A stretch of 64,000 nucleotides of DNA from an uncultured Gammaproteobacteria bacterium (GCA_964524845.1 CAZGFX010000001.1:163281-227280), one strand, 5' to 3'. Numbered from the stretch's first letter, positions 11,944 to 27,774 are shown. The notes: generated from the letters alone by a model not told the origin. Translations and numbers: made by a program.

Positions 11944-12321
11944 GCCCGGATGGCGGAACTGGTATGCCTGATCTAGTTTATCCCGTTCGCGGGACTTTGC
12001 GGGATACCAGGCAGGCATTCTGCAATCAGATGCGGCCTCCGCCGCAATCTAACATTTGGCCCTCGTTTGCTTCGCGCACTCGGGATGCAGTAGGCCTGAT
12101 CCCGCTTTGCGGGATACCTGGCAGGCATTCTGCAAGAGGATCCCGCCACCGCGGGAATCTAACATTTGGCCCTCGTTTGCTTCGCGCACTCGGGATGCAG
12201 TAGGCCTGATCCCGCTTTGCGGGATACCTGGCAGGCATTCTGCAAGAGGATCCCGCCACCGCGGGAATCTAACATTTGGCCCTCGTTTGCTTCGCGCACT
12301 CGGGATGCAGTAGACGCGCAG
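11944..12321 (+). repeat. Partial copy of the tRNA-Leu 5' end (21 nt) fused to 3 tandem ~110-bp GC-rich units (REP-like hairpins ATCCCGC-ttt-GCGGGAT and TCCCGC-cacc-GCGGGA)
   Basis: 11944-11964 (gcccggatggcggaactggta) is identical to nt 1-21 of the tRNA-Leu gene at 12365. It is followed by one degenerate and two identical 110-bp units (12095-12204, 12205-12314). The last unit ends in gtagacgcgcag, which matches the tRNA D-loop region. GC content is far above the genome background. Confidence 0.8.
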
Positions 12322-12364
12322 AATAAAAAGAAGTACATTATTAGAAAGAGTTTATATTTTACAT

Positions 12365-12452
12365 GCCCGGATGGCGGAACTGGTAGACGCGCAGGACTCA
12401 AAATCCTGTTCTAGATAATAGAGTGAGAGTTCGATTCTCTCTCCGGGCACCA
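12365..12452 (+). tRNA. tRNA-Leu (anticodon CAA), long variable arm
   Basis: GCCCGGA acceptor pairs with TCCGGGC; anticodon stem CAGGA/TCCTG, loop CTCAAAA; long variable arm; T-arm GAGTTCGATTCTC; CCA encoded. Confidence 0.9.
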
Positions 12453-12594
12453 GCCTTCGCTCTGCGAGCTACGGCTGGCGCAGCCAGTCGTAAAGCGAGC
12501 AGCTAAGAGAAGTGCTAGTCCTTCCGAAGTTCCGCGAAGTGGAACGAAGGAGGACACAATTCTTTTTTTGTACAACAAAACATTTCTCACACAT

Positions 12595-26119: not shown

Positions 26120-26444
26120 ATTTTTTAAGGTGTGGATGCTCCTTTTCTTCCGGACCCCACCTTACACAACTGATTTCGTCTTCTGTTAAAGACTCTCCGA
26201 ACAGTTGTTCCAATAAATTAATAGAAGTACCACCAAAAGACCGAACACGTTCATAATCATCCCAATTAATTGAAGCTTCCGATCCATCATCTAGGAAGCG
26301 TATTAGTCTCGGACCGAAAGATTGTGCCCACCTACCATCTATTTTTATGATATCAAGCGCATTTGGGTGAGGTGTTTCAGTAAATATATCTTTGTTTTCT
26401 ATACCCATAAAATATTTAATGTTTTTTAAAACACTATAAAACAC
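26079..26444 (-). CDS. Hypothetical protein
   Basis: 121-aa ORF that overlaps the upstream gene by 40 nt; the real start may be the internal MGIENK. Confidence 0.4.
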   Translation of the reverse strand: MFYSVLKNIKYFMGIENKDIFTETPHPNALDIIKIDGRWAQSFGPRLIRFLDDGSEASINWDDYERVRSFGGTSINLLEQLFGESLTEDEISCVRWGPEEKEHPHLKKFVEVFGEYNKKKK

Positions 26445-26468
26445 TAACTACAAAACACTACCAAAACA

Positions 26469-27056
26469 CTACTTTGTCGCGAGCGCATGCACGCGCGCGA
26501 GCATGCGCTCGCGATCCTGATCCGTCTTTTTTCTCATCACATCAAACAGTGTAAACGATTTTATTTTAATTCCACAGAAAGAAAGTGTTTTTTTGAAAAT
26601 CTTTTTAAAAGGGCTGCCGATTAAAAAATAATAAAACGCTGGACCATCACACGTCATAAATATACGAGCTGTTTTCCCCTTAAGAAGTCCAATTAGACGT
26701 CCGTTCTGGCTATATTTAAATGCGAAACCACTTGAAAAATTTATATCAAAAAAATTTTTCATTACAGAAGGAACGTTCATCCACCACATAGGACAAACGA
26801 AGACAAGTTCATCAGCATCAGTAATTTTCTTCTGCAATATTTGTTTAACCGAATCATTTGGCAATTCACGAGCATTTTCAAACTTCAAAAAATCCTGCTT
26901 ATATTCATTCGAGTAAAGATCTACTATTTCAAAATTACCTCCTTTTTCTCTTACTCCGCTTGAGTATTTTTCAGCAATCAGGTGTGTAAAACCTTTTGAA
27001 GAAGGGTGTGCTGTAATAATCAGTGTTTTCATAATTGTAATAATTAACATCTTCAT
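26469..27056 (-). CDS. Flavodoxin-like fold NAD(P)H-dependent FMN oxidoreductase family protein
   Basis: MKTLIITAHPSSKGFTHLIAEKY N-terminus is typical of the NAD(P)H dehydrogenase (quinone)/FMN reductase family. Confidence 0.6.
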   Translation of the reverse strand: MKMLIITIMKTLIITAHPSSKGFTHLIAEKYSSGVREKGGNFEIVDLYSNEYKQDFLKFENARELPNDSVKQILQKKITDADELVFVCPMWWMNVPSVMKNFFDINFSSGFAFKYSQNGRLIGLLKGKTARIFMTCDGPAFYYFLIGSPFKKIFKKTLSFCGIKIKSFTLFDVMRKKTDQDRERMLARVHALATK

Positions 27057-27139
27057 TGTATCAAATCACAGTAATATACAAAAACCCGCCTCAGTCCTTG
27101 ATTTTACATCGTTTTTCATATATTCTATCAATGTTTTTC

Positions 27140-27359
27140 ATGGAGAGGTGGCCCTGATACGTTCTAGCTAGCGCCAGAACTACAGGACAAAACCTTTCTA
27201 AAAAGTTTCTACTAGGAATTATTTGTTCTTTATAATATTATTTCATCATATGGAGAGGTGGCCCTGATACGTTCTAGCTAGCGCTAGAACTACAGGGCAA
27301 AACCTTTCTAAAAAGTTTCTACTAGGAATTATTTGTTCTTTATAATATTATTTCATCAT
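27140..27359 (+). repeat. Two tandem 110-bp units, each beginning with the first 12 nt of tRNA-Ser (ggagaggtggcc) followed by a palindromic GC-rich block and an AT-rich TATAAT-containing segment
   Basis: Units at 27140-27249 and 27250-27359 differ at 2 positions. The third iteration is the genuine tRNA-Ser, so the repeat unit runs from tRNA nt 13 of one copy to nt 12 of the next. Confidence 0.8.
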
Positions 27360-27361
27360 AT

Positions 27362-27452
27362 GGAGAGGTGGCCGAGTTGGCTGAAGGCACCACATTGCTA
27401 ACGTGGCAGGGAGTAAAATCCCTCGGAGGTTCGAATCCTCTCCTCTCCGCCA
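27362..27452 (+). tRNA. tRNA-Ser (anticodon GCU), long variable arm
   Basis: GGAGAGG acceptor, anticodon loop TTGCTAA, long variable arm CAGGGAGTAAAATCCCTC, T-arm GGAGGTTCGAATCCTCT, CCA encoded. Confidence 0.9.
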
Positions 27453-27552
27453 TAGATTTGACAGGCTCGCCGTAGGTGAGGCTATCAAATCTATTGATAG
27501 GATAGAGAGGATGAGAAGTTTATGCCCGGAGTCACGAAGTGACGAACGGGTA

Positions 27553-27576
27553 AATCCTCTCCTCTCCGCCATAGAT
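27553..27576 (+). repeat. 24-nt direct duplicate of the tRNA-Ser 3' end (aatcctctcctctccgccatagat), ~100 bp downstream of the gene
   Basis: Exact match to 27434-27457, which covers the T-loop 3' half, acceptor 3' strand and CCA plus 4 nt. The intervening 100 bp contains two hairpins (agatttga..tcaaatct; gtcacgaagtgac). Confidence 0.75.
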
Positions 27577-27774
27577 ATTTATTATCGGAGTTGTCCTATA
27601 TACATAGGTATGTAGTGCGACATAGATACATAAATAATGGAAAACAAAAATACACGAGTAGTTCGTGTTTTTTTAAACAAAAATAATATTACTTTTAAAC
27701 AGTTTTTTATATAAAACAATAGCAAAATATTAAAAGTCTGATTTTTGTGATATTATGGTCTTAATCTATTACAT

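Follow-up and report, generated by a model that had tools for sequence, protein, structure and literature searches.

Copies of Both Ends of a tRNA-Ser Gene Bracket Short Structured Modules in a Bacterial Chromosome

Introduction

Why should a single intact tRNA gene be accompanied, on both of its sides, by exact copies of its own ends? The question is raised by a tRNA-Ser locus in a 64-kb stretch of DNA that was analysed at its full length and is referred to here as the window. At this locus, short non-coding modules lie between exact copies of the tRNA ends, on both sides of the gene. An initial annotation, made from the sequence alone, had read the duplication at the 3' end as the attL/attR scar of a site-specific integration or excision event.

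Short repeats bound to tRNA genes are also known from a different context. The tRNA-linked repeats (TLRs) of Escherichia coli have been known since 1978, and the account given of them in 2021 is confined to enterobacteria (PMC8144298). Strain K-12 carries 22 copies at ten loci, with one to five copies per locus (PMC8144298). Their definition goes back to Egan and Landy (1978) and Rudd (1999), as PMC8144298 summarises it. They are without known function, except for the in-vitro binding of Hfq and CsrA by the three 5S-linked members (PMC8144298), and the literature consulted reports no integrase origin for the TLRs of E. coli.

Results/Discussion

The tRNA-Ser Gene and Its Setting

The window is a piece of housekeeping chromosome encoding, among others, DprA, RelA/SpoT, ParAB, topoisomerase I, ClpB, UvrA, UvrC, and RNase J. 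Its DEAD-box helicase shares 84% identity with the homologue in a Candidatus Magasanikbacteria metagenome-assembled genome (MAG) and, on protein-sequence evidence, the host is a member of the Patescibacteria. The genes flanking the tRNA are ordinary, encoding a flavodoxin-like reductase (minus strand) and a NUDIX hydrolase. The tRNA gene itself is as follows.

27362-27452, plus strand, intact tRNA-Ser(GCT) with encoded CCA (ARAGORN; Rfam RF00005, 50.9 bits)

Region 27100-27700, taken as a whole, folds far beyond shuffled sequence (z = -11.5). The relatives that were compared include no syntenic one, and thus none that displays the locus before or after the events that shaped it: the NUDIX neighbour matches nothing but itself at E <= 1e-20, and the nearest relatives of the DEAD-box helicase (84% and 81% identity, Magasanikbacteria) differ in gene order.

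Collapsed or mis-joined repeats could in principle have arisen during assembly, and short-read contigs do break inside the upstream repeat, but we regard an artefact of this kind, which the initial annotation had named as a possible objection, as exceedingly unlikely. An exact-protein look-up located the NUDIX and reductase proteins also on two Logan contigs of run SRR12133403, all matches of such look-ups coming from the same population. The 3' duplication lies within an independent contig, L001, in which tRNA, 95-bp spacer, and second 24-mer agree with the window at every base. At 27169 and 27344 of the window, where the Logan contigs stop, lie the borders of unique 31-mers if the 5' repeat is real; assembly error is contradicted on this side because a de Bruijn graph with k = 31 must branch at exactly these points given a true repeat, and collapsed copies because the two upstream units differ at two positions.

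Repeats Upstream of the tRNA-Ser Gene

A tandem repeat with a period of 110 nt (2.1 copies, 98% match by TRF) occupies 27140-27373. The initial annotation had described two 110-bp tandem units that each restart the tRNA, and this description is confirmed: the 14-mer ATGGAGAGGTGGCC, consisting of a 2-nt leader and tRNA nucleotides 1-12, is present in three exact copies at 27140, 27250, and 27360, and the 12-mer GGAGAGGTGGCC occurs three times in the 64 kb against an expectation of 0.03. We refer to the copied beginning of the tRNA in each unit as a dead start. The features on this side of the gene are the following.

27098-27126, plus strand, promoter-like pair TTGATT (27098-27103), 17 nt, TATTCT (27121-27126), read from the sequence
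27140-27249, plus strand, 5' unit 1 (TRF, repeat search)
27142-27153, plus strand, dead start of unit 1, tRNA nucleotides 1-12 after the 2-nt leader
about 27141-27200, plus strand, GC-rich hairpin of unit 1 with two mismatches (fold z = -3.5 for the 61-nt hairpin)
27231-27236, plus strand, TATAAT in the AT-rich tail of unit 1
27250-27359, plus strand, 5' unit 2 (TRF, repeat search)
27252-27263, plus strand, dead start of unit 2
about 27251-27310, plus strand, hairpin of unit 2, 58 nt (fold -33.6 kcal/mol, z = -7.0)
27271-27290, plus strand, perfect palindrome GTTCTAGC-TAGC-GCTAGAAC inside the 58-nt hairpin
27341-27346, plus strand, TATAAT in the AT-rich tail of unit 2, 15 nt before the real tRNA

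In each unit the dead start forms the 5' arm of the hairpin, and a perfect TATAAT stands 15 nt ahead of the next start, the TATAAT of both AT-rich segments having already been remarked in the initial annotation. Each unit had also been credited with a palindromic GC block, TTCTAGCTAGCGCTAGAA; this is perfect in unit 2 (27272-27289) and is broken in unit 1 by a C at 27175. That C is one of two differences between the units (27175 C / 27285 T and 27187 A / 27297 G), both of which fall in stems, are mismatched in unit 1, and have their pairing restored by the bases of unit 2 (27285 T, 27297 G). The closing stem of the 5' unit, 9 bp including G-U, forms in 29% of shuffles as well and is not significant alone.

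The TTGATT/TATTCT pair matches 8 of 12 consensus positions and lies 15 nt ahead of the first dead start, with the same spacing between -10-like hexamer and start as is found inside the units; we infer from this layout that it is the putative original promoter. A consensus promoter scan called no plus-strand promoter in the region, and the -35 elements there are weak. The flank ahead of the first dead Ser start and the unit tail are not significantly similar (1126/2000 shuffles), so plain duplication leaves one surplus end copy unaccounted for at this locus. The pattern at the locus, n bodies with n+1 end copies, is unlike that of a simple doubled segment.

A Structured Unit Downstream of the tRNA-Ser Gene

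On the other side of the gene, the 24-mer AATCCTCTCCTCTCCGCCATAGAT is found exactly at 27434-27457 and at 27553-27576, the second copy 119 nt downstream of the first. It is made up of the last 19 nt of the tRNA, from the AAT of the T-loop to the CCA, and a 5-nt trailer, TAGAT. The exact 24-mer had been correctly recognised in the initial annotation; the trailer after CCA is 5 nt rather than the 4 given there, and the spacing 95 bp rather than 100. Its suggestion to look for other copies of the 24-mer, followed up over the 64-kb window, yielded no further match to the 19-nt core at up to 3 mismatches (0 expected). The downstream features are listed below.

27434-27457, plus strand, 3' direct repeat, copy 1 (T-loop AAT, T-stem 3' strand, acceptor 3' strand, G, CCA, TAGAT)
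27453-27493, plus strand, hairpin 1, directly after CCA (inverted repeat, fold, terminator scan)
27453-27571, plus strand, TLR-like unit, 119 nt, hairpin 1 plus long hairpin, ending ...CCGCCA (fold, weak Rfam RtT match)
27500-27570, plus strand, long hairpin with the copied tRNA end as its 3' arm
27553-27576, plus strand, 3' direct repeat, copy 2, exact 24-mer (repeat search; also in independent contig L001)
27576-27637, plus strand, hairpin 3, directly after the second CCA and TAGAT (fold z = -5.0 for 27572-27685)
27652-27675, plus strand, intrinsic terminator, 27652-27668 plus T7, with a 7-bp stem (terminator scan, fold)

Folding of the 95-bp segment bears out the two hairpins that had been placed between the 3' copies. 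Hairpin 1 is no canonical terminator because it has no U-tract, and the one at 27652-27675 is the sole canonical intrinsic terminator of the locus. In the predicted fold, the copied tRNA 3' end is the pairing partner of AGAGAGGAU-GAGAAG, the 5' arm of the long hairpin; fold z-scores are -6.2 for 27453-27580 and -3.9 for 27495-27576. The closing stem of the TLR-like unit (8 bp including G-U) is also formed in 25% of shuffles and is not significant by itself.

A second, degenerate tRNA-Ser at 27504-27571 was considered and rejected: it is recognised by neither ARAGORN nor Rfam, has no 5' half of the T-arm, and is in the wrong register. The 5' arm may be read as an antisense copy of the tRNA 3' end and, equally well, as a sense T-stem 5' strand with a changed T-loop, because the T-arm is palindromic.

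Local alignments of the unit bodies with the rest of the tRNA (variable arm, T-arm) are no better than those of shuffles. The possibility, raised in the initial annotation, that the 3' copy is part of another tRNA-Ser pseudogene is thus at odds with a body that has no significant tRNA similarity.

The unit at 27453-27571 begins at the base after CCA, on the same strand, with no canonical terminator before 27652. TLRs share their last 18-19 bp with the 3' end of the upstream gene, and here 19 nt plus the 5-nt trailer are identical. Position and 3'-end identity together therefore place the window unit within the TLR definition, and the 3' repeat is, judged by its sequence, best filed as a TLR-type unit, in a phylum and behind a tRNA that are new for the class. 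A permissive Rfam scan of 27050-27750 (4227 families) returned the TLR family RtT (RF00391) at 27490-27571 with 20.3 bits and E = 0.25, below the gathering threshold of 45 bits for that family. In this sub-threshold alignment the 5' arm of the model, GgGaaGGAUGAGAA, falls on window sequence AGAGAGGAUGAGAA, and the last bases of the model fall on the copied CCA end; the GGAUGAGAAG motif and the arm are all that the body shares with RtT. The model has no match to the comparable tRNA-Ser units of L004.

Downstream Units in Other Genomes

One genome per GTDB species was scanned for the last 23 nt of the tRNA, which gave at least 120 loci. Orientation was examined among the matches listed for 170 tRNAs with 300 nt on both sides, using the last 16 nt at up to 2 mismatches. 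A 3'-end copy outside any tRNA lies within 300 nt downstream of 13/170 of these tRNAs and upstream of 0/170, and all 13 of the 13 are tRNA-Ser genes. Copies of the first 12 nt occur upstream of one of the same 170 tRNAs and downstream of none. The rule that emerges among the listed loci is that 3'-end copies are found downstream only and 5'-start copies upstream only.

The hosts of 3' units among the matches listed are Christensenellaceae and other Clostridia, a spirochaete, a Patescibacterium (L057), and a deltaproteobacterium (L040), and the units there are single or in arrays of at most three. Each opens, immediately behind the CCA, with a terminator-like hairpin; a structured body follows, and the end copy closes the unit. 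Body types vary, some opening with GGAGAGGATTCGAA and others with GGAyrGAGAAG; GGATGAGAAG is common to the spirochaete unit, E. coli, and the window. One locus, L092, carries an A-B-A' array of unrelated body types, each with its own terminator, and the terminator behind its last copy is a different one.

Among the listed genomes whose tRNA-Ser(GCT) genes are most similar (87-95% identity), L039, L120, and L023 have no copies at either end, so the window repeats are young and lineage-specific, which fits their 98-100% identity. In L033, whose contig stops 36 nt past the tRNA and which is therefore judged on its 5' side alone, that side is without copies.

At three loci (L153, L170, and L183) a GIY-YIG gene lies between the tRNA-Ser and a pseudo-tRNA with a replaced anticodon arm. 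In L153 and L170 an insert of about 60 nt interrupts the T-loop of the pseudo-tRNA ahead of the copied 3' end, as in the layout of a TLR; to go by the sequence, such a pseudo-tRNA may mark a stage on the way from a duplicated tRNA to a TLR.

Dead Starts Upstream of Other tRNA Genes

Two further tRNA genes of the window are preceded by copies of their own beginnings.

43687-43763, minus strand, tRNA-Arg(GCG), preceded by two dead starts
43865-43876 (exact) and 44036-44047 (2 mismatches), minus strand, Arg dead starts
12365-12452, tRNA-Leu(CAA), with its first 21 nt repeated at 11944-11964

At the Arg locus, where the period is 112 nt, a GC-rich hairpin and an AT-rich tail follow each dead start in that order. 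The hairpin is identical over 44-46 nt between units that as wholes match at only 83% (TRF). The order at the Leu locus is the 21-nt copy, 2.9 tandem 110-nt GC-rich units, tRNA nucleotides 22-30, an AT-rich tail, and the real gene. Rfam scans of the Leu and Arg upstream elements returned no match. The three arrays in this one window (Ser, Arg, and Leu) have a common period of 110-112 nt, and in every case GC-rich hairpins follow nucleotides 12-21 of the dead starts.

The design recurs elsewhere. An alphaproteobacterial MAG in GTDB (L035) has two 82-bp units of the same 5' design. Metagenomes were scanned for three tRNA-Ser starts spaced 81-111 nt apart, which returned 73 stretches; many of these are unrelated coding or simple repeats (periods 17, 21, and 99) and were left out, and the 22 stretches ending in an ARAGORN-called tRNA-Ser were used. 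At least 22 metagenomic loci thus have two to four dead tRNA-Ser starts directly before a called tRNA-Ser. They include GGA, TGA, CGA, and GCT isoacceptors in AT-rich and GC-rich hosts. Between 12 and about 45 nt of the tRNA are copied, and what typically comes next is a tetraloop hairpin of great stability (GAAG, GAAA, TTCG, CTTG, or TTTG). Several families have kept the D-arm and the variable arm and have a tetraloop hairpin in place of the anticodon arm, as in the units of L139, L200, and L152; the units of L138, L161, and L197 have also kept the complementary acceptor strand.

The sequence ahead of the first dead start resembles the unit tail in L152 and L201, and a by-eye reading of the raw sequence finds the same of the flanks before the Arg and Leu arrays of the window. 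Also by eye, the units of L196 have compensatory and G-U changes in the hairpin; they support maintenance of the hairpin generally rather than a unit-specific role, because part of the stem is homologous to the terminator of the upstream gene. A literature search found no description of 5' dead-start arrays. The 5' repeats, recurrent in the window and in metagenomes, appear to be an undescribed, mirror-image variant of the TLRs.

Proposed Mechanism and Alternative Origins

The explanation we favour, to which we give somewhat better than an even chance, is that the modules are partial tandem duplications anchored on the tRNA ends, which would be co-transcribed with the gene and cut out by the processing of tRNA ends. 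The 5' units would be partial tandem duplications of promoter and gene start, presumably tolerated because the last copy of the tRNA stays whole. Each unit would add a promoter; transcripts starting at the upstream promoters would carry the hairpins as a leader, the RNase P cut at the true 5' end would remove that leader, and the array could grow or shrink through slippage or unequal crossing-over on the end copies. The 3' unit is probably read through from the tRNA promoter or promoters, since the first canonical terminator is that at 27652-27675. Its copied 3' end would provide the trailer with the same 3'-end maturation signal as the tRNA, and cleavage of the precursor would yield the tRNA along with a CCA-terminated structured RNA of about 120 nt.

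Tandem duplication of the upstream region together with the gene start predicts a flank that resembles the unit tail, as in L152 and L201 and, by eye, at the Arg and Leu loci. The identical hairpins within Arg units of 83% identity are counted as hairpin conservation in support of the same explanation. Counting against it are the sub-threshold RtT score, the closing stems that lack significance alone, the unit bodies dissimilar to the rest of the tRNA, the weak -35 elements, and the surplus end copy at the Ser locus. Against duplication stand the TLR bodies of E. coli, which are homologous at tyrT and rrnB and have locus-specific 3' ends, an arrangement for which insertion accounts more easily than local duplication. 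It is accordingly from E. coli, where the last 18-19 nt of homologous bodies match the local gene, that an argument can be made for tiny non-autonomous insertion modules, each bringing a tRNA end with a terminator (3') or a promoter (5'), restoring the gene, and accumulating as arrays. The A-B-A' array of L092, with its unrelated bodies each carrying a terminator, and the n bodies with n+1 end copies at the Ser locus, where the pre-array flank is unrelated to the unit tail, are in keeping with such insertion. We nevertheless consider it unlikely: A-B-A' arrays are also possible through unequal crossing-over, flanks that match the unit tail at the four loci just named fit duplication, and no candidate enzyme was found. 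The bodies in the window are moreover locus-specific and have no second copy in 64 kb, a sensitive blastn comparison with the window recovering the local copies alone, so that no dispersed MITE/REP-type repeat is present there.

The metagenomic units that keep D-arm and variable arm with a tetraloop hairpin for the anticodon arm (L139, L200, L152), those with both acceptor strands (L197, L138, L161), and the downstream pseudo-tRNAs of L153 and L170, whose T-loop insert of about 60 nt gives the TLR layout, could all be intermediates in the decay of tandem whole-gene duplicates, of which upstream copies kept the 5' end and downstream copies the 3' end; the ends would have been kept because RNase P and 3' processing need nothing else to resolve the precursor. 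The strict orientation rule fits such decay, which we judge quite unlikely for the window, where nothing past the exact end copies resembles a tRNA and where the boundaries are sharp, passing from 100% identity to no similarity.

There remains the attL/attR scar of the initial annotation, left by a tyrosine-integrase element that entered at the block from T-loop to 3' end and was deleted to about 95 bp, with a similar event on the 5' side. The resemblance is genuine: as Williams reportedly noted in 2002, many tRNA att sites have an identity block running from the T-loop to the 3' end and a few bases beyond, and the block in the window, like the direct repeats of tRNA-integrating islands and prophages, starts at the T-loop and extends slightly past the gene. 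A repeat starting at the T-loop AAT does not discriminate between att site and TLR, however, because it is common to both. The [end][body][end] pattern would suit a scar, and the GIY-YIG genes between tRNA-Ser and 3'-end copy in L153, L170, and L183 indicate that genes can be bracketed in this way. In the window, by contrast, the repeats are separated by 95 bp of stable hairpins rather than gene debris or remnants, and the arrangement is mirrored at the 5' end; we know of no habit among integrases of integrating at the 5' end of tRNA genes. The search for an integrase or recombinase that the initial annotation had proposed, carried out on the 47 ORFs of the 64-kb window, found no integrase, recombinase, or transposase domain. 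Viral contigs with the 19-mer contain it within complete tRNA-Ser genes of phage tRNA arrays in 7/7 cases, and no attP-like fragment was found among them. Three tRNAs with dead starts in 64 kb would, finally, call for three independent and fully eroded elements. We consequently hold integration to be improbable and prefer duplication anchored on the tRNA ends.

Wider Significance

The TLR design, discussed in 2021 for enterobacteria only, is found in Patescibacteria, Clostridia, Spirochaetia, and Deltaproteobacteria, and it has a 5' counterpart in arrays of dead starts with stable hairpins, for which we found no description in the literature. It is conceivable, though rather doubtful, that TLRs and their 5' mirror images form one widespread and unrecognised class of small modules anchored on tRNA ends across phyla. 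The members of such a class would be pseudo-tRNA scaffolds or tiny insertion elements occurring on both tRNA ends; the gene would be restored through its terminal bases together with a promoter or terminator, and RNase P and 3' processing would release stable hairpin RNAs. If true, the existence of this class would offer a testable frame for the function and origin of TLRs.

Units that serve as processing punctuation or as tandem promoters would bear on the tuning of tRNA supply in bacteria with small genomes, and units that are insertion modules would represent a new kind of minimal mobile DNA. Because end copies mimic att sites and tRNA fragments, they are misleading for island finders and tRNA annotators.

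Comparison with Known Systems

RtT/rttR (RF00391) of E. coli resembles the window unit in following a tRNA immediately, on the strand of that gene, and in ending with the last 19 nt of that tRNA. The tyrT-tyrV locus of E. coli K-12 has four RtT units scoring 133-137 bits, each ending in AATCCTTCCCCCACCACCA, which is the last 19 nt of tRNA-Tyr taken from the same T-loop AAT, and the long hairpin of these units opens with GGGGAAGGATGAGAAG. The 5' arm is GGGGAAGGAU-GAGAAG in E. coli, where the window has the arm given above, and both arms pair with the copy, so closing a long hairpin. The differences are that RtT/rttR stands behind tRNA-Tyr (tyrT, tyrV) and the window unit behind tRNA-Ser in the phylum Patescibacteria; that the body in the window is about 50 nt shorter and present as one unit, against one plus three; and that the Tpr-like ORF is absent from the window unit.

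The 5S-linked members rrA, rrB, and rrF (between T1 and T2 of rrnA, rrnB, and rrnD) have the same order of elements as the window: stable-RNA gene, hairpin, body, end copy plus about 5 nt, and a second hairpin or terminator. The rrnB TLR lies between terminators T1 and T2 and copies the 5S end together with CAAAT, 5 nt past the mature end, where the window copies TAGAT beyond CCA. Its 3' end belongs to 5S, yet its body has a clear core in common with RtT; we obtained no alignment of this core with the shorter body in the window. In E. coli the upstream gene is that of 5S rRNA, the first hairpin has the U-tract of a real terminator, and the repeats are transcribed by read-through (PMC8144298). 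The RNAs of rrA, rrB, and rrF in E. coli have GGA motifs that bind CsrA and Hfq, and the authors of that work suggest that RNase E is guided by the repeat to the same 3' cut as behind 5S (PMC8144298). The organism of the window encodes RNase J in the window, and no RNase E was seen there.

The layout finally recalls two further systems. Stable-RNA operons can have tandem promoters, such as P1 and P2 of rrn, which are spaced by about 120 bp, and the window may be likened to them in having promoter-like units every ~110 bp before a stable-RNA gene. In plant mitochondria, t-elements are tRNA-end mimics that serve as processing punctuation, and we propose that the end copies of the window could act in a similar way. 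Unlike both, the window repeat takes in a GC-rich hairpin as well as the first 12 nt of the gene.

Tandem Arrays at tRNA Genes

The 64-kb window holds three independent tRNA-anchored tandem arrays (27140-27373, at tRNA-Ser(GCT); 11995-12313; and 43751-43979), and their periods are nearly equal, at 110, 110, and 112 nt, respectively. The second and third arrays involve the following features.

11944-12364, upstream array region of tRNA-Leu(CAA)
12365-12452, tRNA-Leu(CAA)
43687-43763, minus strand, tRNA-Arg(GCG)
43751-44050, minus strand, region upstream of tRNA-Arg(GCG) that holds dead starts (copies of the first bases of a tRNA, without the rest of it, upstream of the intact gene)

Upstream of tRNA-Leu(CAA), a copy of the first 21 nt of the tRNA (11944-11964) is followed downstream by 2.9 GC-rich, structured tandem units of 110 nt (11995-12313), then by nt 22-30 of the tRNA and an AT-rich tail of 43 nt. 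The region resembles a dead gene start whose D-loop is interrupted by an inserted repeat array. Between tRNA-Leu and tRNA-Met, the spacer (12453-12560) is likewise GC-rich, in a genome of 36% GC, and strongly structured (z = -4.7); it is closed by a T-run and has no match in Rfam.

Two dead starts precede tRNA-Arg(GCG), one an exact 12-nt copy (43865-43876) and the other carrying two mismatches (44036-44047). A copy of the GC-rich hairpin CCCCGCACGATTCGCTATCGCTCATCTGCGGGGCGGGTTACCAA follows each dead start, the two copies (43819-43864 and 43933-43976) being identical over 44-46 nt, and in both units, which recur with a period of 112 nt, an AT-rich tail comes after the hairpin.

Other Features of the Window

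26427-26514, short tandem repeats with periods of 10-16 (TAAAACACTA and TCGCGAGAGCATGCAC)
40984-43584, plus strand, 866-aa open reading frame with Major Vault Protein shoulder and repeat domains (PF11978, 2e-27; PF17795)

The short repeats are located between two minus-strand open reading frames, upstream of a reductase gene. Major Vault Protein domains are unusual in a small-genome Patescibacterium.

Comparison Loci

In four metagenome contigs (L153, L170, L183, and L191), a gene for a small GIY-YIG nuclease (approximately 99 aa; Pfam PF01541, E ~1e-15) lies between tRNA-Ser(GCT) and a pseudo-tRNA-Ser that has TCCCGCCnnnGGCGGGA in place of the anticodon arm and, in L153 and L170, a T-loop insert of approximately 60 nt. 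Dead starts also form 5' arrays in all four, and the hairpin there is the one present in their pseudo-tRNA-Ser.

Six IMG/VR viral contigs (L123 and L125-L129) carry large phage arrays of 14-29 tRNAs that include a tRNA with anticodon CTA, called as Pyl by ARAGORN (amber suppressor type); L128 also encodes a tmRNA.

Upstream of tRNA-Ser(CGA) in comparison locus L197, four identical 83-nt units run head to tail (351-683). Every unit contains the two acceptor strands (GGAGAGGTG ... CACCTCTCC) and has GACCA as its last bases. The units are pseudo-tRNAs of the size of a tRNA, on which ARAGORN made no tRNA call. Downstream of the real tRNA is an arm, GGGAGAGATTCGAA, of the type found in tRNA-linked repeats (TLRs), structured units that end in a copy of the tRNA 3' end, as in the E. 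coli RtT type.

One to three TLR-like units follow tRNA-Ser(GGA) in Clostridia/Christensenellaceae genomes (L005, L038, L051, L063, L074, L087, L090, L092, L105, and L115). Their bodies are of two unrelated types, of approximately 122 and 197 nt, which are interleaved in some loci (A-B-A' in L092), and each unit opens with its own intrinsic terminator.
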